A stretch of 30,579 nucleotides of DNA from an uncultured archaeon. Lineage in GTDB: Archaea > Asgardarchaeota > Lokiarchaeia > Sigyniarchaeales > SOKP01. A program made the translations under genes and the position numbers. Under the pieces are notes generated by a model that was given only the letters and a program-made list of their open reading frames with translations, ran no database searches and was not told where the DNA came from. The stretch covers positions 1 to 30,579 of the forward strand of contig CAYLZE010000061.1 of assembly GCA_964388035.1 (NCBI GenBank). Direction: 5' to 3'. Shown here one piece after another: positions 3,762 through 29,820 of the stretch (its first letter is position 1; every line of letters starts with the position of its first letter).

Positions 3762-4274
3762 ATGAAATCTATGAATTTTGAAAATAATTCATCGGAATCG
3801 TCAAAAGAGTATCAGATAGATGAAGTGGACAAGAAAATCTTAAATTTACTTCAAGACAATTTTAAAATCACTTTCAAGCAATTGTCAGACAAGGTAGGAT
3901 TGGCACCCTCCTCAATACATAATCGTGTAAGCAACATGATAAAAGCCGGGATAATACAAAAAACAGGAACATTAGTCAATCCCATTAAGGTTGGATTTAA
4001 AACTGTGGCAATCCTGGGATTGACTGTAGATCCTCTCCGCATGACAGAGATAGCCAAAAAACTTGCAAGCTTTCATCAAATCCAGATGGTGGGCACCACA
4101 ACCGGTGATCATGATATCTTAGTAAGAATAATCGCTGAAAACGATAAAGACTTGTGGAGATTCATAAATTTGCATATAAAAACTATTGAAGGTATTAAAC
4201 CCCAGATGGATGTATCCAGTTTCATTGATTTCTATAAAAAGATGGAAAAAGTTTATTTTCCAGTGGAGGAATGA
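3762..4274 (+). CDS. Lrp/AsnC family transcriptional regulator
   Basis: IDEVDKKILNLLQ...LSDKVGLAPSSIHNRVSNM..GII HTH; TTGDHDILV RAM-domain motif. Confidence 0.93.
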   Translation: MKSMNFENNSSESSKEYQIDEVDKKILNLLQDNFKITFKQLSDKVGLAPSSIHNRVSNMIKAGIIQKTGTLVNPIKVGFKTVAILGLTVDPLRMTEIAKKLASFHQIQMVGTTTGDHDILVRIIAENDKDLWRFINLHIKTIEGIKPQMDVSSFIDFYKKMEKVYFPVEE

Positions 4275-8897: not shown

Positions 8898-10250
8898 TTA
8901 TAGTCTTGCTATGTACCTATCCCGTTCCCATTGAGAGACATGAGTCCGATATGCATCAAATTCCTCAAGTTTCGCGTAATAAAAGTTTTTAAATGGATCC
9001 TCACCAAATACGTCCCGCATTAACTCGGATTCTTTAAAAATAGTTAATGCCTGTCGTAGACTTCCCGGAAGAGCATCGATTCCTGATTTCTCAAGATCTT
9101 TTGTTGAGAAATGATATACATTTTTATCGGTAGGTTCGGGAATTTCTATATTATCTGACATTACCCCATCGAGTCCCGCTGCTAACAGTACGGCAAATTG
9201 GAGGTATGGATTTCCTGCGGGGTCCGGACATCGAATTTCACAACGCGCTGCAGAAGGGGTGCCATGAAAATCAGGCACTCGAATCAATGGAGAGCGATTC
9301 CTAAATCCCCATGCCACATATACGGGTGCTTCAAACCCAGGAACCAGTCTCCTATACGAATTAGGCCAACTACTTAATACCGCACACATTTCTTTAGCAT
9401 GGCTCAGCTGACCCGCAATCCATTTTTTCATTGTCATCGAGATATTATCTGAATTGTTTTCATCATAAAATGCGTTTTTTCCCCCTTTCCAAAGACTCTG
9501 ATGACAGTGCATGCCAGAACCATTTATTCCGGCAAATGGTTTCGGCATGAAAGTCGCCGTCATATCATTCTGGGCTGCAACCGTTTTAACAATGGATTTC
9601 ACGGTGATAGTTTTATCAGCACTTTCCACTGCCTTATCATATCGAAAATCTACTTCATGTTGACCAAAAGCTACTTCATGATGTAACTTTTCAATTTCAA
9701 TCCCCATCGCATCGCAATATTCGGCAATGATATACCGCATTTTTTCATTAATGTCGTAAGGATCATAATCAAAATACCCTCTCAAATCTGAAGGTTTAAA
9801 TGCTTGTTCAGTATCCTTGTCCAGAATAAAGAATTCCAATTCAGGAGCGCAGTAATAGGTATATCCTTCTTTTTCCGCCTTGTCTATCATTCGTTGTAAG
9901 ATATAGCGAGGATCTCCCTCATATCGTTGGCCATCGGGTTTGTAAATATCACATATAACCCGAGCAACTTTGTTACTTTTACGCCATGGAAGGAGATAAA
10001 ACGTGCTCGGGTCCGGAACGGCGACCTTATCGCTTTCTTCAATGGCACCATATCCCGTGATCGAACTACCATCAAAATTCTCTCCCTCTTTCAGTAATTC
10101 TTCGATTCTATTGGCATTTACTTCAAAACTCTTGAGAATACCATGGATATCCGTGAATTGCAGATAAATAAACTTAATCTGCTCCTCTTTTACAGTTTCG
10201 ATTATTTTTTCGCATAATCCATTTCTTTTAGGATCGTCTAATTTAATCAT
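8898..10250 (-). CDS. glnA: Glutamine synthetase type I
   Basis: FDGSSI, HHEVAFGQHE, TFMPKPFAGINGSGMH, RLVPGFEAP, NRSPLIRVP, EIRCPDPAGNPY motifs; 450 aa. Confidence 0.97.
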   Translation of the reverse strand: MIKLDDPKRNGLCEKIIETVKEEQIKFIYLQFTDIHGILKSFEVNANRIEELLKEGENFDGSSITGYGAIEESDKVAVPDPSTFYLLPWRKSNKVARVICDIYKPDGQRYEGDPRYILQRMIDKAEKEGYTYYCAPELEFFILDKDTEQAFKPSDLRGYFDYDPYDINEKMRYIIAEYCDAMGIEIEKLHHEVAFGQHEVDFRYDKAVESADKTITVKSIVKTVAAQNDMTATFMPKPFAGINGSGMHCHQSLWKGGKNAFYDENNSDNISMTMKKWIAGQLSHAKEMCAVLSSWPNSYRRLVPGFEAPVYVAWGFRNRSPLIRVPDFHGTPSAARCEIRCPDPAGNPYLQFAVLLAAGLDGVMSDNIEIPEPTDKNVYHFSTKDLEKSGIDALPGSLRQALTIFKESELMRDVFGEDPFKNFYYAKLEEFDAYRTHVSQWERDRYIARL

Positions 10251-10544: not shown

Positions 10545-11054
10545 ATGAATGAAGAAACGGAATTAGAAGAGATCGATAACGAAATCTTAAGAGAATTGAG
10601 TCTTGACGGGCGAAAGTCTTATCGAACGTTGGCAAAAGAATTAGAAAAGTCTCCCGTTACTATTAAAAAACACGTGGAAGACCTAGAAGAAAAAGGTATT
10701 ATCAAAAATTACGGGATTGGTATTGGATATGAAAAATTGGGATACGAAATCATCGCTCTAATTGAACTAACGATAGCTAAGGGAGAAATGATTAGAATAG
10801 AAAATGAAATCGCTATCGATCCTCATGTTTTCGGGGTGTATGACCTTACTGGAACTTATGATGCAGTAATTCTAGCCAGATTCAAGCAGAGAGGCGAATT
10901 AAATGCTCTGGTCAAAAGAATCAATGGAATTGACTCCGTTGCTAGAACAAATACTCATTTAGTCTTGAACGTGATAAAAGAAGGAATTTCATTCGGGGAT
11001 CTATTAAAATATGAAAAAGAAAAGGACAAATCCTTAGAAGATAAATCAACTTAG
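10545..11054 (+). CDS. Lrp/AsnC family transcriptional regulator, divergent from glnA
   Basis: IDNEILRELSLDGRKSYRTLAKEL..SPVTIKKHVEDLEEKGII HTH; YDLTGTYD RAM motif. Confidence 0.95.
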   Translation: MNEETELEEIDNEILRELSLDGRKSYRTLAKELEKSPVTIKKHVEDLEEKGIIKNYGIGIGYEKLGYEIIALIELTIAKGEMIRIENEIAIDPHVFGVYDLTGTYDAVILARFKQRGELNALVKRINGIDSVARTNTHLVLNVIKEGISFGDLLKYEKEKDKSLEDKST

Positions 11055-11167: not shown

Positions 11168-12202
11168 TTACGTTATGATGGTGGTCCATCCGAACTCATC
11201 TTCAATTTCCCCTTTTTGTATACCGGTTAGCAATTCATATAGTTTCCGCGTGATTTCTCCTGGTTCATGATCATTAAACACTCTTTTTTGATCTTGCCAG
11301 CTAATCGATCCAATAGGAGTAATGACTGCAGCGGTACCCGTGCAAAAAGCTTCCGTGCACTCCTCCGTAAAAAGCACGTCATATGGAATGTCTCTCTGTT
11401 CTGTTTTTATTCTTAGCTTTTTATCTGCGAGCTCAAAAACCGATTTTAAAGTAATCCCTTCAAGAATGGTTCCATCCCAGCTTGGCGTGCATAAGGTGTC
11501 ATTTATCATCGCACAAAAATTTGCGGCTCCCACTTCGCTGATATATTTCATATGAACAGAATCCAAATATAATATCTGTGCAAATCCTTCTTCTTTTGCT
11601 TCTTTAGCTGGCTTCATGGTTCCTGCATAATTGCTGCACGTTTTTGAAAACCCTGTTCCCCCCTTGCTCGCTCTCGTATATTTTTTGGATATTTTCAAAT
11701 CGATTGCTTCAAATCCCTTCGGGAAGTAAGGTCCCACAGGACAGCAAAAAACAATAAAGAGGTATTCTTTTGCAGGAGCGATTCCTAAAATAGGACCACT
11801 TCCAATCATTAAAGGTCGAATGTATAACGCGCCCCCGCTATCATTGGGAGGAAGATATTCTCGATTATCTTTCACGACGGCTGTTACGGCTTCCACGTAT
11901 TTTTTCTCATCATATTCCGGCATTAATAATCGTTCTGCACTATAATTCATTCGCTTTGCATTTTCTTCGGGACGAAATAATATTGGCTCTCCAGATGGAG
12001 TGCAATAAGCTTTCATTCCTTCAAAAATTCCCTGACCATAATTCAACACGCACGCCGCAGGAGAAAGTTCTATGGATCCAAAAGGAACTATCTTTCCCGC
12101 TTCCCACCTTCCATCCTTATAACGGCTAATAAACATTTTCTTGGTGGGGATGAACTCAAACCCTATGTGATACAAATCCACTTCTTTTTGTAATTCTATC
12201 AT
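11168..12202 (-). CDS. ilvE: Branched-chain amino acid aminotransferase (PLP fold IV)
   Basis: LNYGQGIFEGMKAY, LFRPEEN.KRM, LYIRP, catalytic K in GTGFSKTCSNY, EVGAAN, ILEGIT, EAFCTGTAAVITP. Confidence 0.95.
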   Translation of the reverse strand: MIELQKEVDLYHIGFEFIPTKKMFISRYKDGRWEAGKIVPFGSIELSPAACVLNYGQGIFEGMKAYCTPSGEPILFRPEENAKRMNYSAERLLMPEYDEKKYVEAVTAVVKDNREYLPPNDSGGALYIRPLMIGSGPILGIAPAKEYLFIVFCCPVGPYFPKGFEAIDLKISKKYTRASKGGTGFSKTCSNYAGTMKPAKEAKEEGFAQILYLDSVHMKYISEVGAANFCAMINDTLCTPSWDGTILEGITLKSVFELADKKLRIKTEQRDIPYDVLFTEECTEAFCTGTAAVITPIGSISWQDQKRVFNDHEPGEITRKLYELLTGIQKGEIEDEFGWTTIIT

Positions 12203-18886: not shown

Positions 18887-20293
18887 TCATGGATATTCTA
18901 TTTTGAAAGTTGGGGTGAATTGTTTATAGGCAACTTTTTTCTTCTCCCATAATTTCTTTGCTTCCATGAGCCATTCCTCAAAGTCACTGGTCTTTGCTGG
19001 ATATTTTTCATAGTGCTTTTTAATCTTTCCCGAGAGAGAATTTGCATTTAATAATTGATTAACGTTTTTAAAGGATAACCTGCGCCCTAAAAGACCCGCG
19101 ATTAATTTACCCAGAAATGCTAGCATCTCTCCTAAGCTCATTTCCTCTTCATATTCTTTATTAGGCTCGGGAATTTCCTCGTTATCATCTCCCCCTTTAT
19201 AAATCATTTCTTTTTCGAGCAGGTAATTCCATTCCTTTTCGCTCATATTTAAAATACCAGATAATTGGGTAAGCAGGCCTGCAAATTTCGCTCCTTGATC
19301 TCGATAATATTTAACATTGATATCCCACAATAAATCCCGGGTGATGTATCCCTCTTGTTGTAGGGCTTTATCTACCACTTCATTCAAGATTTTGCATAAA
19401 TTCCAAGTTGCAGTGACCCCGTGACCCGAAAAGGGGTACGTGATACAACCCGCATCACCGATGCATGCGATTCCATCGCTTACCAAGGAATAAGGCGGAC
19501 GCCGATAAGGGGTGATACCCCTTTCTTTTTTAATCACTTCATAAGGAGGAAATTTAGCTTTTTCTAACAAGATGTCCAATGCCTTTTTAGCCTCCTCGTA
19601 TGATCCTCCTTGTCCTATTCCTAGTATGGCGCCATCTTCCGTGAGGGAGGGTCCAAACCAAGATTGATAATAAATGTAAGAGTTCTCTATGGAAGGATGG
19701 GGTTCTTCGGGCTTCTTCCATCGAATGTAATCCAAAAGAACGTGCATGACATCATGTGGACCGAGCTTGAACGTTTCAATGCCATAGTCCGGAGGAAGAG
19801 AGGTTCTTACCACTGCGGAGGTCCCAGAAGCATCAATTATGACTCTTGCACGAAATTCGATAGCATTGCCCCCCGTTTCTACAACACATCCCACAATTTT
19901 ATTATCTTGAAAAATGAGTTTCTTGAACGCATGGTTGAATTTTAAAACTACTCCATCTTTTTCTACTATTCCATACATTCTTTGCAAGAAGGGGGATAAC
20001 CGCATGATGGTCTGTAATGCTCTTACCGTGATTCTGGTCTTAAAATCGGGAGAATTAATGGTAGATCGAGTAAAAGTACCGAGGTATTCGGGCATGCCTT
20101 CTTTTGGCATGGGAATCCCAGAGTTCTCAAATCTATCGGTCTCAAAATGGATGACATCTAATCGCTTTCCCACATCATTTCGCGCATCTTTATCGATTAA
20201 AATTACTGAATGTCCCTTTTTGGCTAATAGCCAGCTCATGTAGGTTCCTGCAGTTCCTGCTCCAATCACTAACACATCTGATTCTTCACTCAT
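18887..20293 (-). CDS. FAD-dependent oxidoreductase, geranylgeranyl reductase-like family
   Basis: DVLVIGAGTAG, IIDASG, IGDAG...PFSGHG motifs. Confidence 0.8.
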   Translation of the reverse strand: MSEESDVLVIGAGTAGTYMSWLLAKKGHSVILIDKDARNDVGKRLDVIHFETDRFENSGIPMPKEGMPEYLGTFTRSTINSPDFKTRITVRALQTIMRLSPFLQRMYGIVEKDGVVLKFNHAFKKLIFQDNKIVGCVVETGGNAIEFRARVIIDASGTSAVVRTSLPPDYGIETFKLGPHDVMHVLLDYIRWKKPEEPHPSIENSYIYYQSWFGPSLTEDGAILGIGQGGSYEEAKKALDILLEKAKFPPYEVIKKERGITPYRRPPYSLVSDGIACIGDAGCITYPFSGHGVTATWNLCKILNEVVDKALQQEGYITRDLLWDINVKYYRDQGAKFAGLLTQLSGILNMSEKEWNYLLEKEMIYKGGDDNEEIPEPNKEYEEEMSLGEMLAFLGKLIAGLLGRRLSFKNVNQLLNANSLSGKIKKHYEKYPAKTSDFEEWLMEAKKLWEKKKVAYKQFTPTFKIEYP

Positions 20294-21399: not shown

Positions 21400-23016
21400 A
21401 TGATTGGTGCCCGAACCCGCGTGGAAGATTCTTGCGAATCGGGATTATGTCCCATATGCATCGCAGATTGTTCCGTGTGGTGTGAAGTGAGTAAAAGTGC
21501 ATTGCGAGGTCGTGAGGTCCTTTATCCCTTGCGAGAACATTTTGGAGATTCCACTGCCGGCACTCCCAAAGATTTTGGTTTTTCTTTTGGAGATTTTCAG
21601 ATACAATTTGAGTGTAGAGGAGCTAAAGGTCTTGATGAATTAAACGAAGATAAAGTAATATTTCCTAATACGGATATCAGTTCAAAATGGGGTAATATCG
21701 AACAAAAACTCCCCTTGGTCATAGCTGGTTTAGGAAGCACGTATGTTGCTAGAAAAAATTGGGAAGGCTTAGCCAAAGGTGCTGCAATGGCGGGTGTTAG
21801 CTTGACAATCGGAGAAAATGTGGTCGGCATGGACCCAAATGCGAGATTTGAAAAAAATGGCGGGCTCTATCCCAAAGTAGTCGAAACAGAAGATATGAAA
21901 TACCGTATAAAAGCTTATCGCGAATTCTGGGATGGTAAAAATGGAGATATCATTGTTCAGAAAAACGTAGAAGACACCCGACTCGGTGTTTTCGATTATG
22001 TTTCATCTAAACTAGACGTGACATCTCTTGAAATAAAATTTGGTCAAGGTGCTAAGGCAATTGGAGGGGAAGTGCGATTAAACACCATTGAACGTGCCAA
22101 ATTATTGCAAGAGAGAGGATATCTCGTCATTCCCGATCCAAGTGATCCCATTGTTGAACAACAATATCGAGATGGTCTTATCTTGGATTTTGAAAGGCAT
22201 TCCCGAGTGGGCATTGCAACGACGGAGCAAGTCTTAGAAGAGATTGATCAAGTGCGAGAAAATGGAGCGAAAAACATTTTTATCAAAACTGGTGCTTATC
22301 GACCCTCAGCAACTGCTTGGATTATAAGAATGGGCGTTGAGGGGAAAGTAGACGGAATGACCTTTGATGGTGCGGGAGGCGGTACGGGAATGAGTCCTAT
22401 CAGCATGATGAATGAAGGGTCCATCCCAACTGCATATTTGGAAGCTTTGGTCATAGGTTGCTTGGACATGATCAAGAAGAAAAATCCCAATGCTAAAATA
22501 CCCACCATTGCGATTGCAGGAGGATTTGCAAACGAAACTCAGATATTTAAAGCATTAGCAATGGGTGCCCCCTACGTGACGTGCATAGGTTTAGCCCGAG
22601 CTCCAATTACTGCTGCAATGAAAGCACATTGGGCAAGCAAGGCAATAGAACACAAACAAGTCACCCCTGCAATGTTGAATTATCTCGGTTTTCCCAGTGT
22701 CAAGGACCCTGACAGCCTGACAATGAACGAGGCGTTTCTAGAGTATGATTACTTGACCCGGAAGTATCATAATAAAGAAATTCCTCCCGCCGCTATTGGT
22801 GTGTACACTTATTTTACCAGTAAATTAGGAATAGGGATTAAACAATTATTAGCCGGAGCCAGAAAGTTTAAGTTAGATCTTATTGATCGGGAGGATATTG
22901 CCTGTATTTCTCAAAGAGCCATTGACGTATGCAAGAAATGGAATTTAGGTGTTTTATCGCAAGAAGATCTTGATATGGAACTGGTAAAGAAAGAAATCTA
23001 CTCCGGAAATTATTAA
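21400..23016 (+). CDS. FMN-binding glutamate synthase family protein (stand-alone synthase domain); start may be ATA 21364
   Basis: N-terminal CPIC...C..WCE cluster, LEIKFGQGAKAIGGE, DGAGGGTGMSP, IAIAGGF, KALAMGA, QLLAGARKF. No amidotransferase domain. Confidence 0.9.
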   Translation: MIGARTRVEDSCESGLCPICIADCSVWCEVSKSALRGREVLYPLREHFGDSTAGTPKDFGFSFGDFQIQFECRGAKGLDELNEDKVIFPNTDISSKWGNIEQKLPLVIAGLGSTYVARKNWEGLAKGAAMAGVSLTIGENVVGMDPNARFEKNGGLYPKVVETEDMKYRIKAYREFWDGKNGDIIVQKNVEDTRLGVFDYVSSKLDVTSLEIKFGQGAKAIGGEVRLNTIERAKLLQERGYLVIPDPSDPIVEQQYRDGLILDFERHSRVGIATTEQVLEEIDQVRENGAKNIFIKTGAYRPSATAWIIRMGVEGKVDGMTFDGAGGGTGMSPISMMNEGSIPTAYLEALVIGCLDMIKKKNPNAKIPTIAIAGGFANETQIFKALAMGAPYVTCIGLARAPITAAMKAHWASKAIEHKQVTPAMLNYLGFPSVKDPDSLTMNEAFLEYDYLTRKYHNKEIPPAAIGVYTYFTSKLGIGIKQLLAGARKFKLDLIDREDIACISQRAIDVCKKWNLGVLSQEDLDMELVKKEIYSGNY

Positions 23017-23456: not shown

Positions 23457-23900
23457 ATGTGGGAATATGAAATCCAACTCAATTGGGAAAAACAGGAAAT
23501 TCCTTTCAAGCGAATGGTAAAAATCTCCTCTGAGGGATTTCCTGATATTATTGCATCAACTCCAGAGAATCGGGGTGGATTTGCAGGTTATTGGTCTCCC
23601 GAGCATCTCTTTGTAGCATCTGCTAGCATTTGCTTCGCTAACACATTTCTTGCCATTGCTAAAAATTCTGATTTGCAAATCGAAAAATTTCGTATAAAGT
23701 CCACAGGAATTGTTGATTCAGTTGAAATTGAAGGCATTTCCCGAACTGTGGTGACGGAAATTCATATAAAACTTTCTCTTCAATTAACTGACTCAAAATT
23801 TGAGAAAAAAGCGAGAAGAATAATAGAAAAATCTGAAGAAAATTGTATAATAAAGAATTCTGTAAAATCCAAAGTCATAATCGAACTCGTACTCGAATGA
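23457..23900 (+). CDS. OsmC/Ohr family protein
   Basis: WSPEHLFVASASICF and ENCII two-Cys motif. Confidence 0.88.
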   Translation: MWEYEIQLNWEKQEIPFKRMVKISSEGFPDIIASTPENRGGFAGYWSPEHLFVASASICFANTFLAIAKNSDLQIEKFRIKSTGIVDSVEIEGISRTVVTEIHIKLSLQLTDSKFEKKARRIIEKSEENCIIKNSVKSKVIIELVLE

Positions 23901-26192: not shown

Positions 26193-27074
26193 TTGCCGTT
26201 TAAAATTATAGAGAAAAGATATCTAATATCCGATGGGAGCCTGCTAGAGATGGAGCTTGCTACCCCCCTCATAGCTAAAAAGGCTCAACCAGGGAACTTT
26301 ATTATTCTAAGGATAAACGAAACAGGAGAACGCTTCCCGCTTACAATAGCAGATTATGATCTGGAAAAAGGTTCTATCACGATTGTGTTTCAAGTAATAG
26401 GAAAAAGTACAAAGTTATTAGCTGAACTTAAAGTGGAAGATTACATTCAAGATGTGGTGGGCCCTTTAGGAAATCCCATTTCCGTAGAAAAATATCCGCA
26501 TCCGATTATCATTATAGGGGGTGGAGTGGGAATAGCACCTTGCTACCCCCAAGCAAGAGCATTAAAAGAAGCCGGAAACGAAATAATCTCCATTCTCGGA
26601 GCACGCACGAGTAATCTGTTATTTTGGAAAGATAAAATGGCAGAAGTGAGTGATAAAATAATAATATGCACGGATGATGGTTCGGAAGGAATTAAGGGCG
26701 TTGTTACAGGTCCCTTGAAAGATTTAATGTCTAATGAACCCATTAGCTTAGTCATTGCCATAGGTCCTCTCATCATGATGAAATACGTTACATTAACCAC
26801 TAATGGAAGTGCAAGCCTTCCGAAAATAAAAACCATGGTCTCCTTGAATCCAATAATGGTGGATGGAACCGGCATGTGTGGTGGGTGTAGATTTCTTTCT
26901 ACTACGGGTCAAGTTTATTTTGCTTGCGTGGATGGACCAGATTTTGACGGCCATCTCGTAGATTTTGATAATTTAATCAAGAGAGCGAAACGATTTCAAG
27001 AGCAGGAATTAAAATCCTTAAACCTTTTTGAAAAGAATTGCAAAGCTCTTGAAAAGTTCAGAAAGGTGAGTTGA
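26193..27074 (+). CDS. nfnA: NfnA/SudB-type FAD/NAD-binding [2Fe-2S] subunit
   Basis: ERFPLTIAD, GPLG, GGGVGIAP, MVDGTGMCGGCR...ACVDGPDFD (Asp/Cys3 [2Fe-2S]); immediately upstream of an NfnB-like domain. Confidence 0.88.
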   Translation: MPFKIIEKRYLISDGSLLEMELATPLIAKKAQPGNFIILRINETGERFPLTIADYDLEKGSITIVFQVIGKSTKLLAELKVEDYIQDVVGPLGNPISVEKYPHPIIIIGGGVGIAPCYPQARALKEAGNEIISILGARTSNLLFWKDKMAEVSDKIIICTDDGSEGIKGVVTGPLKDLMSNEPISLVIAIGPLIMMKYVTLTTNGSASLPKIKTMVSLNPIMVDGTGMCGGCRFLSTTGQVYFACVDGPDFDGHLVDFDNLIKRAKRFQEQELKSLNLFEKNCKALEKFRKVS

Positions 27075-27078
27075 TTTA

Positions 27079-29820
27079 ATGCAATTCAGAAGCAATTTAA
27101 TCGATATTTTGCTAAGTAATAAAGATAAAATTATAGCCTCCAAAAAGTATACAGAAAGTGAATTTGAGGTTTTTATAGCTGCTTTAATGCAAGCAGAAAA
27201 ACTTAGATACGAAATTCTTGAAAAAATTAAAATCGATAATGAGATAGATGTAGAGAAATTAGCTAAAGAGTTTAAAATTTCCCGAAATGCAGTGGGGTTA
27301 AATCTGGAATATTTAAAGGAGGCGGGATTATTGGAATTCGTTGGAGAAGTCTCGGAGTTTTATAGGAGTTTAGAGAAGAAAAACGATAAGCTGGGGGTCT
27401 TTCCTACTATTTTAGAATTAAAAGAAAGGAATCTATGTTCGGGTTGCGGACTATGTGTTTCCACATGCCCCACTAATGCCATAAATTTCACTAATGATGT
27501 ATTAGAAATAGATGAGGGAGCTTGTATTAAATGTGGGTTATGTTATGCCTGTTGTCATCGAACCTTCTTTCCAAATCTTTTAAATGACGTGGGGGTAAAA
27601 AAAGAGAAAGATGATAAATTTCTTAAAGAACTCAATTATTACAAGGAAATTTATACGGCTCAAACCAATGATGAACAGATAAAAAAAGTGGCTCAAGATG
27701 GTGGAGTTGTCACCAGTCTACTAAAAACAGCTTTTTTAGAAAATTTGATTGATACAGCACTAGTAGTTGGGGAATTGAAAGATGAATTTAGCCTTAAGCC
27801 CTTCCCTTACTTAGCATTTAACGAACAAGAACTATTAAACAGTGGTGGTACTAAATACTCTAATGCCCATTTATTAAAGATCCTACAGCAAGCAAGGGCT
27901 AGAAAGTCAATTGCTGTGGTTGGAACGCCTTGTACGATGCAAGCACTTAAGAAAGTTGCCGCATATCCTCTTAATAAGCCACTTTTTGACAATATTTGGA
28001 TCAAAATCGGTATTTTTTGCATGGAATCATTTGACCATGCTAAAATAGTGGAAATATTAAAAAGCAAATTCCAGAAAAAGCCCGAAGAGATCAGAAAAAT
28101 GAACATTCATGGGGGACGATTCATCATTTACGATAACGAGGGAAAACATCATGATATTCCCATAAAAAATGTAAAGGAATACGGGCGTTATGGTTGCTTC
28201 TTATGTAGCGATTTGACAGCTGAACATGCTGATATTTCTATAGGCTTTATTGGTTCTGATCCAGATTGGTCTACCGTGATTATAAGATCTAAAAGAGGAT
28301 TAGAACTTTTCCAAAAATCCTCGGAACATCAATTAATAAAAAAGAAGCTAATTAAAGAGACAGATGAAAACTTCACGCAATTACGTAAGATTGCTCGCTC
28401 CAAAATGAAGTTTTATAAAGAGATTCCCAGACAAAAAATGATTGAACAAGATCCCGTGGAAAGAAGTAAGAATTTTTTGGAGGTTCCCCAAGGGCTCACT
28501 CCTGAAATGGTTAGATTAGAGACTTTGAGATGTTTGCAATGTGGAAATCCTTCATGTATTCAAGGATGCCCCGTAAATGTAAATATTCCCGAATTTATCA
28601 GATTCCTGAAATTAGGAAAATATAATGAAGCCGCTCATAGTATTAAACAGTATAATTTATTGCCAGCCATATGTGGGAGAGTCTGTCCCCAAGAAATACA
28701 ATGTGAGGAATTCTGTTTATTAGGAAAGATTGATAAGCCGGTCGCAATAGGGTATTTAGAGAGATTTATTGCGGATTGGGAGCGAAAAAACCAATTGAAA
28801 GTATGTCCTGATTGTAGGCCTCCCAATGGTATTAAGGTTGCGGTAATTGGGAGTGGTCCTGCAGGATTAACGTGTGCTGCGGATTTGGTCCGATTAGGAT
28901 ATGAGGTTACAATTTTTGAAGCCTTTCATGAGGGAGGTGGTGTTCTGGTTTATGGGATTCCCGAATTTAGATTGCCTAAAGAAATCGTAAAAGATGAAAT
29001 AGAGACTGTTCAACTTTTAGGCGTTAAAATAAAGTATAATGCTATCATAAGTAAGCTCCTTACTATTGAAGATTTAGAAGATTTGGGGTTTAAAGCGATT
29101 TTCATAGGAGTTGGAGCCGGATTGCCACAAATGCTAAGAATATGTGGCATAGAATTAAATGGTGTCTTAACTGCAAATGAATTCCTCACGCGCACCAATT
29201 TAATGAAAGCTTATAGATTTCCAGAATATGACACTCCTATTGATGTAGGAAGTCAAGTCACCGTAATTGGCGGAGGAAATGTCGCCGTAGATTCGGCGCG
29301 TGCGGCTCTCAGATTAGGAGCAAAAAAGGTAACAATTATATATCGTAGAACTGAAGTAGAAATGCCCGCCCGTAAGGAAGAGATTCACCACGCGAAGGAA
29401 GAAGGAATTAATTTCATGTTCTTAACGAATCCCATGGAATTTATTGGAGATGTTGAGGGCAATGTAAAAGAAATGGTTTTAGAAAGAATGAAATTGGGAG
29501 AACCAGATGAATCGGGAAGGAGATCTCCAGTACCAATTGAAAAGTCTAATTTTACCATTGATACCGATATGGTCATCATTGCGATTGGAACTAGTGCTAA
29601 TACCTTATTATTGAGGAAAATTCCTGATTTAAAACTCACAGCAAGACAATACATCATGACAGACGAAGATGGTCGTACCAATATAGAAAATGTATTTGCC
29701 GGAGGTGATATTGTTACAGGATCCGCAACGGTAATATCTGCTATGGGTGCTGGAAGAAAGGCAGCAAAAGCTATTGATCAATATCTTATTAAAAAATATA
29801 AAGATTCTCAATGTTCTTAA
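27079..29820 (+). CDS. Fusion protein: wHTH + 2x[4Fe-4S] + FrhB/FpoF-like F420-binding domain + NfnB/SudA (GltD-like) NADPH oxidoreductase
   Basis: HTH 'VEKLAKEFKISRNAVGLNLEYLKEAGLL'; CSGCGLCVSTCP and CIKCGLCYACC; FrhB motifs AQDGGVVT, GTKY, VGTPC, IGIFCMESF, CFLCSDL...ADISIG; NfnB motifs RCLQC..C.QGCP, ICGRVCPQEIQCE, GSGPAG, GGGNVA, YRRT, GGDIVTG. Confidence 0.88.
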   Translation: MQFRSNLIDILLSNKDKIIASKKYTESEFEVFIAALMQAEKLRYEILEKIKIDNEIDVEKLAKEFKISRNAVGLNLEYLKEAGLLEFVGEVSEFYRSLEKKNDKLGVFPTILELKERNLCSGCGLCVSTCPTNAINFTNDVLEIDEGACIKCGLCYACCHRTFFPNLLNDVGVKKEKDDKFLKELNYYKEIYTAQTNDEQIKKVAQDGGVVTSLLKTAFLENLIDTALVVGELKDEFSLKPFPYLAFNEQELLNSGGTKYSNAHLLKILQQARARKSIAVVGTPCTMQALKKVAAYPLNKPLFDNIWIKIGIFCMESFDHAKIVEILKSKFQKKPEEIRKMNIHGGRFIIYDNEGKHHDIPIKNVKEYGRYGCFLCSDLTAEHADISIGFIGSDPDWSTVIIRSKRGLELFQKSSEHQLIKKKLIKETDENFTQLRKIARSKMKFYKEIPRQKMIEQDPVERSKNFLEVPQGLTPEMVRLETLRCLQCGNPSCIQGCPVNVNIPEFIRFLKLGKYNEAAHSIKQYNLLPAICGRVCPQEIQCEEFCLLGKIDKPVAIGYLERFIADWERKNQLKVCPDCRPPNGIKVAVIGSGPAGLTCAADLVRLGYEVTIFEAFHEGGGVLVYGIPEFRLPKEIVKDEIETVQLLGVKIKYNAIISKLLTIEDLEDLGFKAIFIGVGAGLPQMLRICGIELNGVLTANEFLTRTNLMKAYRFPEYDTPIDVGSQVTVIGGGNVAVDSARAALRLGAKKVTIIYRRTEVEMPARKEEIHHAKEEGINFMFLTNPMEFIGDVEGNVKEMVLERMKLGEPDESGRRSPVPIEKSNFTIDTDMVIIAIGTSANTLLLRKIPDLKLTARQYIMTDEDGRTNIENVFAGGDIVTGSATVISAMGAGRKAAKAIDQYLIKKYKDSQCS

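Follow-up and report, generated by a model that had tools for sequence, protein, structure and literature searches.

Which electron carrier does an NfnAB-type bifurcating enzyme serve when its large subunit is fused to a domain of the FrhB family, with its pocket for coenzyme F420? The question is raised by two genes on contig CAYLZE010000061.1 of an uncultured Lokiarchaeial archaeon (assembly GCA_964388035.1). The window analysed is this whole contig (C61; 30,579 bases), which belongs to a 5.47-Mb genome that is 96.7% complete. On its forward strand, an nfnA open reading frame (ORF) of 293 amino acids (aa) is followed after a gap of 4 nucleotides (nt) by an ORF of 913 aa that joins a winged helix-turn-helix (wHTH), a ferredoxin-like, an FrhB-family and an NfnB domain (Table 1); the ORF coordinates agree with a preliminary description made from the sequence alone. 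That description had suggested an F420 arm hard-wired to the enzyme, which would act as an F420H2/NADH:NADP+ transhydrogenase, or else an F420-linked donor for neighbouring glutamate synthase or glutamate dehydrogenase (GDH). On the evidence presented here we incline slightly towards another reading, in which the pair would be an NfnAB-type flavin-bifurcating NADH-dependent NADPH oxidoreductase with an optional F420 port on its large subunit, F420 taking the place of ferredoxin.

An NfnAB core with an N-terminal extension

Pfam divides the long ORF into HTH_20 (aa 40-86; weak, E 0.0013), Fer4 (aa 116-161), FrhB_FdhB_N (aa 191-269), FrhB_FdhB_C (aa 276-425, E 1.6e-37), Fer4_20 (aa 462-572) and Pyr_redox_2 (aa 586-892). 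The wHTH had been expected at about aa 40-90, which fits the weak HTH_20 match and our own limits of about aa 38-90, and the start of the NfnB domain near aa 449 (nt 28423) likewise agrees with the domain matches. AlphaFold2 models the whole chain with a predicted local distance difference test score (pLDDT) of 85.9 and a predicted template modelling score (pTM) of 0.83, and aa 1-448 alone with values of 91.9 and 0.92.

Residues 453-907 match Thermotoga maritima NfnB (4YLF_B) with E 4e-165, compared with E 8e-75 for GltD; the NfnB domain has 57% identity and a Z score of 46.9 to 4YLF_B. The nfnA product matches the small subunit of Pyrococcus furiosus NfnI (5JCA_S) with E 4e-85. We rejected the database label 'glutamate synthase small chain' (GltD): NfnB is far closer, gltD models remain below cut-off and the paired gene is nfnA. 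Taking the Nfn-defining motifs from PMC6405883, we found the ERxPxT strand of NfnA as ERFPLT (aa 46-51), together with the Asp/Cys3 [2Fe-2S] motif (D224/C229/C232/C245), invariant in 64 relatives. In NfnB the [4Fe-4S] ligands (C485/488/493/497, C536/542/546 and the Glu ligand E561, equivalent to T. maritima E117), R631 (T. maritima R187, the Arg at N5 of the bifurcating FAD) and the NADP-phosphate residues R756/R757 are all present; Cys485-546, E561, R631 and R756/R757 are invariant in the family alignment. Judged by these residues, the two genes are of the NfnAB type, with all cofactor and bifurcation residues intact.

With NfnAB/NfnI (NfnSL) of T. maritima (4YLF) and P. furiosus (5JCA) the pair thus shares the cluster ligands including the Glu ligand, the N5 Arg, the NADP Args and the Asp-ligated [2Fe-2S] cluster, as well as the nfnA-nfnB order with a gap of a few bases. 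It differs in the 448-residue wHTH-ferredoxin-FrhB extension and in the loss, in most fused family members, of a basic patch after the distal-cluster Cys. None of the described Nfn architectures (patterns A-D of PMC6405883) fits, and none contains an FrhB or extra ferredoxin domain. The fused gene is the sole NfnB-type gene at high similarity in the host genome.

Build and origin of the added module

All 12 cysteines of the module (eight in the ferredoxin-like and four in the FrhB domain) are invariant, and the FAD motifs QDGG (aa 206-209, helix N-terminus) and GTKY (aa 257-260, Lys-Tyr loop) are conserved to at least 90%. The four-Cys [4Fe-4S] site of FrhB (C104/134/192/195) corresponds to C285/314/373/376. 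Over aa 114-453 we found sequence matches to FrhB, to Fsr, the sulfite reductase that depends on F420, and to the zeta subunit of the F420-reducing carbon monoxide dehydrogenase of Ca. Ethanoperedens thermophilum (8RIU). The model of aa 1-448 superimposes on 8RIU_E with Z 44.7 (root-mean-square deviation 2.1 Å, 338 aligned residues), followed by 8RJA_K (Z 40.0), Fsr (7NP8, Z 37.1) and FrhB (9R51_B, Z 35.4). Sequence and model alike indicate that ferredoxin and FrhB domains are combined in the added part in the way known from the zeta subunit and the input half of Fsr.

The zeta subunit and its counterpart in the Fwd complex (8RJA) share the 2x[4Fe-4S] plus FrhB build and redirect a ferredoxin-dependent enzyme to F420, as would be the case here. 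Unlike the present module, they are separate subunits on non-bifurcating CO2-forming enzymes, whereas here the unit carries a wHTH and is fused to a bifurcating flavoenzyme. In Fsr, too, ferredoxin-FrhB precedes a catalytic domain within a single chain, but the output is siroheme and the electrons come from F420H2.

Stand-alone proteins of 470-530 aa with the same helix-plus-wHTH, ferredoxin and FrhB parts are found across Asgard groups, and the host genome encodes two of them (contigs C45 and C57). Four of the five whose genes we looked up lie beside mvhD or hdrA-like genes, and in the fifth protein, P0134, a degenerate MvhD (E 7e-4) is joined to the N-terminus. A FastTree phylogeny of the ferredoxin-FrhB domains places the fused modules in one clade (support 100) nested among the stand-alone proteins (97-99). 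Homology covers the whole N-terminal 448 residues, the wHTHs of the two forms reaching an atlas TM score of 0.90; the stand-alone subunits differ in lacking NfnB and in 15-25 additional N-terminal residues, which the fused module does not have. These relationships indicate that wHTH, ferredoxin and FrhB came as one unit from Asgard hdrA/mvhD-linked subunits, and that the wHTH is not a separate addition. It is the least conserved part (48% mean identity) and shares with regulators no more than the generic wHTH fold, with Pfam matches below cut-off, Z scores of at most 6.1 and atlas values of 0.89-0.91; its role is presumably structural or inherited. The idea of the wHTH as a C-terminal extension of MvhD was discarded; P0134 lends it weak support, and a profile search found no MvhD-wHTH proteins.

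Distribution of the fusion

About 80 protein clusters (90% identity) show the same architecture of about 910 aa, and 35 of the 68 genomes of the host's family of Lokiarchaeia (Promethearchaeia) have matches that extend across the FrhB/NfnB junction. The fusion therefore reflects neither a lost stop codon nor a misassembly, the two artefacts that the preliminary description had considered. An identical JGI fragment (P0001), possibly from the same sample as the source, supports it as well. No contig bridging the junction was seen among those listed from four runs with patchy coverage, a metagenome scan with the FrhB part gave no match, and no holder of it was listed among RNA data. The distribution search covered 300 genomes sampled from the phylum, and among those searched outside the host's family no fusion was found; named relatives belong to Promethearchaeota/Lokiarchaeota. 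An NfnA domain lies directly upstream in all 39 fused loci read, as a stand-alone protein in 37 and at the end of a longer protein in two. A literature search for FrhB fused to NfnB beside NfnA, with subscription journals mostly outside its coverage, found no description and likewise no characterised enzyme of this layout, as had been surmised; the nearest published oddity is an HdrA with an NfnB insertion in ANME-1. The fusion is a real, conserved and apparently undescribed variant of NfnAB.

FrhB is combined with related domains in other ways, too. The host genome contains a second FrhB-NfnB hybrid, built differently: an 820-aa protein in an hdrC-hdrB-hdrA-mvhD cluster (C5, L004:6295-8757) has a Fer4_20/Pyr_redox_2 (NfnB/GltD-like) unit inserted between FrhB_N and FrhB_C. 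Fusions of FrhB with an NfnA-type DHODB Fe-S domain (605 aa; P0109, P0110) and with CBS domains (about 505 aa; P0107, P0108) were also observed.

F420 supply and proposed electron flow

A search of the host for F420 synthesis genes, recommended in the preliminary description, found cofG, cofH, cofD and cofE above cut-off; the genome also encodes an F420-dependent Mtd and has 12 matches to the FrhB C-terminal domain. Within the family cofG occurs in 62 and cofD in 67 of 68 genomes. In six genomes of a sister family neither gene (0/6) nor the fusion was found. The cofC search in the host returned only an arsenosugar glycosyltransferase. In relatives a cofC-like gene lies two genes past serS, and the host contig C45 ends at serS. 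We rejected a broken F420 pathway, because the place of cofC falls in this assembly gap. Taken together, the F420 genes, the conserved FAD and Fe-S motifs and the zeta-like fold make an F420 link likely for the family, as had been proposed; for this copy the claim is weakened by an exchange in the pocket (S390F, see below).

Two further host genes may be mentioned here. The cofE product is of the long FbiB-like type (475 aa; C64, L005:8269-10629) with a C-terminal FbiB match below cut-off, and its gene adjoins cofD. The only [NiFe]-hydrogenase large-subunit match of the genome (C28, L088:1393-2697) is a divergent one, with about 50 bits for each part in Pfam, and comes after mvhD-like and small-subunit genes.

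In the mechanism we propose, the ferredoxin domain of the module would sit where free ferredoxin docks, at the distal [4Fe-4S] cluster of NfnB, either within one chain or across the dimer. NADPH would reduce the bifurcating FAD; one electron would pass via [2Fe-2S] and a-FAD to NAD+, and the low-potential electron would run through five [4Fe-4S] clusters to the FrhB FAD, from where hydride would be transferred to F420 (net: 2 NADPH + NAD+ + F420 -> 2 NADP+ + NADH + F420H2). We infer this wiring, its direction and the F420 activity. The zeta subunit is a strong precedent for such an arrangement: it anchors via its ferredoxin domain at the docking place of soluble ferredoxin, which is still reduced eightfold slower than F420 (PMC11493965), and since the electron relay of Fsr crosses protomers (PMC10229431), the wire could be intermolecular here. 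Residual ferredoxin activity is probable.

For the energetics we used potentials of -370 mV for NADPH, -280 mV for NADH and -340 to -380 mV for F420 (PMC6405883, PMC8518648, PMC10229431, PMC9304861). On these grounds the most plausible role of the F420 arm is that of an outlet for NADPH, with NADPH reducing NAD+ and F420 rather than F420H2 driving NADPH synthesis. The electrons would enter the F420 pool of the cell (F420-dependent Mtd, several HdrA-MvhD-FrhB clusters). Like the F420H2:NADP+ oxidoreductase Fno, such an enzyme would join the F420 and NADP pools; unlike it, Fno is a small Rossmann protein of unrelated sequence with direct hydride transfer and no flavin, Fe-S or NAD coupling.

The module is optional

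In 23 genomes of the family we found only plain NfnB of 462-491 aa, often in the same setting as the fusion (guaA-nfnA-nfnB-gdh, or linked to aldehyde:ferredoxin oxidoreductase). The fused NfnB domains are not one clade (approximately unbiased test, p 0.006, the grouping having been named after the first tree was seen). Five plain copies carry deletion scars with three different breakpoints. In L106 and L111 the plain NfnB starts with the FrhB C-terminal helix, and the DNA is 87-90% identical to the fused locus L080 on either side of a 1.24-kb deletion; L113 has eroded N-terminal DNA upstream, and L110 and L112 retain the first residues of the fusion. Moreover, two proteins from different branches (P0079, P0080) have lost the FAD motifs and aa 316-366 with every Cys kept. 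At the syntenic locus of the sole congeneric genome, the NfnB gene is of the plain type. We read these patterns as showing that the module is optional and was lost several times; a 'hard-wired' F420 arm is at odds with repeated deletion, plain NfnB at the same locus and two lineages without the flavin/F420 parts.

The NfnB domain of our copy is a mosaic: identity of its Fe-S domain is 76% with fused relatives and 55% with the plain congener, and in its FAD and NADP domains the order is reversed (67-73% and 76-81%, respectively). This fits co-evolution with the module or its regain by recombination. Two explanations for module loss were rejected. Loss of F420 synthesis fails because plain-NfnB genomes keep cofG and cofD. 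Replacement by Fno-like genes fails as well: all of these are below cut-off, and their distribution follows genus (21/22 in g2, where fused and plain forms both occur).

The candidate docking patch and the F420 pocket of this copy

Cys546 presumably ligates the distal cluster of NfnB, by homology to the clusters of dihydropyrimidine dehydrogenase, and the loop that begins with it (aa 546-551) is basic in plain NfnB and mostly neutral or hydrophobic in fused forms. Among 30 plain, 40 fused and 5 scarred copies, Lys or Arg is found in 28, 2 and 5, respectively, at residue 550, in 27, 2 and 0 at residue 551, and in 16, 0 and 0 at residue 492; the 550 position is Lys in NfnB of T. maritima and P. 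furiosus. The predicted docking site of ferredoxin lies close to the distal cluster (PMC6405883), and loss of the patch would be expected if the module covered the site that acidic ferredoxin needs. The pattern hints, without being significant, at a module placed on the ferredoxin site. When FrhB-type chains are superimposed on the whole-protein model, the match continues as far as residues 553-564, at most a hint that the NfnB Fe-S domain abuts the module; a complex prediction for the module (aa 1-448) and NfnB (aa 452-908) scored 0.07 and is not used as evidence.

Several observations speak against an F420 port. The patch columns were picked after looking, and of five independent pairs four go the same way and none the opposite way (p 0.125). 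Lys550 is retained in this copy and in three relatives with intact Ser390. HCAR uses ferredoxin, and the module model matches it with Z 30.6: the FrhB fold also occurs in enzymes that do not use F420. Furthermore, the low-potential electron would be wasted, because NADPH could reduce F420 without bifurcation. Finally, this copy carries the exchanges S390F and K345G.

Phe390 aligns with FrhB Ser209, beside F420, a position occupied by Ser in 75/75 relatives and by no aromatic residue among 286 FrhB-family sequences. The TTT codon is probably real, since contigs from three runs, each of a different study and one perhaps of the source sample, cover it and no difference is listed. Lys345 is present in 66/75 family members, and Gly occurs there in 32/286 wider homologues; the IGKGK turn reads IHGGR in this copy, which keeps one of the two basic residues. 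Wholesale decay of the module is not supported, deviations at conserved columns amounting to 10/104 in FrhB versus 20/268 in NfnB (p 0.53). The FrhB domain, earlier described as complete, is so in length and fold, but not at the Ser209-equivalent; degeneration of F420-binding residues, named as a reason to doubt F420 use, applies in part to this copy and not to the family. Given S390F, the F420 site of this copy may therefore be impaired, and the chance that it has lost most of its F420 turnover seems to us about even. With its altered pocket, it may be slow with F420 and work for the most part as an NfnAB to which an Fe-S wire is tethered.

Alternative explanations

The alternative that survives best, although we regard it as unlikely, is a loosely coupled hub: an FpoF-like ferredoxin:F420 oxidoreductase tethered to ordinary NfnAB, with free ferredoxin carrying electrons between the two. 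Soluble FpoF has such an activity (PMC9012536), and passing electrons to F420 from ferredoxin at -500 mV would release about 31 kJ/mol. Several small ferredoxin-like ORFs are present in the host, and the retained Lys550 and the restoration of plain NfnB by simple deletion are likewise in favour of this model. The loss of the basic patch by the distal cluster in most fused forms argues in the other direction, as does the NfnB Fe-S domain, whose similarity tracks the module.

Less probable still is an F420-driven transhydrogenase that makes NADPH (F420H2 + NADH + 2 NADP+ -> F420 + NAD+ + 2 NADPH), the direction favoured in the preliminary description. NADPH production is the usual physiological job of Nfn (PMC6405883), no Fno was found above cut-off in the host or 75 relatives, and the reaction is slightly downhill at standard potentials (-4 kJ/mol). 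At the cellular potentials given above, however, it costs 15 to 23 kJ/mol, and F420 would have to be at or below -460 mV for it to proceed, while the same step with ferredoxin at -500 mV yields -8 kJ/mol; the NfnB clusters of P. furiosus lie at -513 and -718 mV (PMC6405883).

The module could also serve mainly to dock and wire NfnAB to HdrA-MvhD or comparable complexes, the role presumed for its stand-alone ancestors, with F420 chemistry secondary. We consider this improbable. Its nesting among subunits encoded beside mvhD or hdrA, the MvhD part of P0134 and the 12 cysteines kept by the otherwise reduced P0079 and P0080 are in its favour, and hdrA-like genes are found near 8/39 fused and 0/24 plain loci, in lineages that are related. 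Against this, almost the whole family conserves the residues for FAD and the F420 pocket, and the fusion is without the N-terminal 15-25 residues of the stand-alone subunits.

A dedicated F420-linked donor for the neighbouring glutamate synthase-like FMN protein or GDH is very improbable: the GDH gene lies 85 nt downstream, a Glu_synthase-domain gene (weak, partial Pfam match) at 21400-23016 and a glutamine synthetase gene at 8898-10250, and F420-dependent glutamate synthases with FrhB domains have been proposed in methanogens, but GDH is found near 13/39 fused versus 13/24 plain loci and a GltB-like gene near 5/39 versus 6/24, so that the association is one of nfnAB rather than of the module, and NfnB is a far better match than GltD for the C-terminal half.

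Features of the locus and of related loci

Table 1. Features of the nfnA-fusion locus in the window, with examples of one gene type from related loci.
Feature	Position	Strand	Basis
nfnA, SudB-type small subunit: a-FAD, NAD site, Asp-ligated [2Fe-2S]	26193..27074	+	5JCA_S match, ERFPLT at aa 46
Fused large subunit, 913 aa: helix + wHTH, 2x[4Fe-4S], FrhB, NfnB	27079..29820	+	Pfam, AlphaFold2
N-terminal helices + winged helix, aa 6-90 (wHTH about aa 38-90)	27094..27348	+	Pfam, fold matches Z up to 6.1
Ferredoxin-like domain, eight Cys (120, 123, 126, 130, 149, 152, 155, 159)	27400..27573	+	invariant, 76 sequences
FrhB-family domain: FAD, one [4Fe-4S] (C285/C314/C373/C376), putative F420 pocket	27631..28422	+	Pfam, fold
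TTT codon of Phe390, FrhB Ser209 position beside bound F420	28246..28248	+	alignment; unique to this copy
NfnB/SudA domain: two [4Fe-4S], bifurcating FAD, NADP site	28423..29817	+	Z 46.9 to 4YLF_B
Loop after Cys546, aa 546-551, candidate ferredoxin/module docking patch	28714..28731	+	plain versus fused comparison
GDH gene, truncated by contig end	29906..30577	+	context, not fusion-specific
Mpt_N gene, examples	L053:5507-6502; L047:4517-6181; L141:7156-8826

The window also contains genes for Lrp/AsnC regulators (3762-4274 and 10545-11054), a class IV aminotransferase (11168-12202), a geranylgeranyl-reductase-like protein (18887-20293) and OsmC (23457-23900). Other fused loci adjoin genes for aldehyde:ferredoxin oxidoreductase, hdrA or Mpt_N dehydrogenase (MtdA/MtdB-type methylene-tetrahydromethanopterin dehydrogenase). 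Directly upstream of nfnA, the last of these occurs in 8/39 fused loci, in related lineages, and in 0/24 plain ones; it could supply the fused enzyme with NAD(P)H.

Some loci contain more than one copy: L063:7361-12871 has two fused large-subunit genes in tandem after one nfnA, and L141:8902-17780 two complete nfnA-fusion pairs inside 9 kb. The gene directly upstream of nfnA in seven fused loci, among them L063 (13898-16654), has a product of about 918 aa (4Fe-4S, Fer4_20, Pyr_redox_2, two CCG domains); it is an HdrD/NfnB-like hybrid, often accompanied by aldehyde:ferredoxin oxidoreductase. In L074 (1773-10196), L115-L119 and L121, NuoE-sized and NuoF-like genes are followed by one whose product of about 1100 aa has 2Fe-2S and NuoG/molybdopterin-oxidoreductase-like parts and ends in NfnA; NfnB comes next and bears the F420 module in L074 and L076. 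These loci may represent a HydABC/Bfu-type module joined to Nfn.

Implications

Characterised Nfn enzymes use ferredoxin on the low-potential arm, and an F420-coupled Nfn, if true, would add a new carrier to this class of flavin-based bifurcation. Tentatively, and with slightly less confidence than in the reading of the enzyme itself, we suggest that the low-potential arm ends here in a two-electron carrier, such that one soluble enzyme, built in Asgard archaea from an Hdr-complex subunit, would couple NADPH, NAD+ and F420 without free ferredoxin, its natural variants (intact, pocket-mutated, flavin-less and deleted) displaying a switch between F420 and ferredoxin. The fused genes are at present mislabelled as glutamate synthase; as a family they offer a natural variant series for testing the re-plumbing of a bifurcating enzyme, and possibly an NAD(P)H-driven system for F420H2 regeneration. 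If the proposal is true, uncultured Lokiarchaeia, usually modelled on ferredoxin and H2, would route NAD(P)H electrons via F420.

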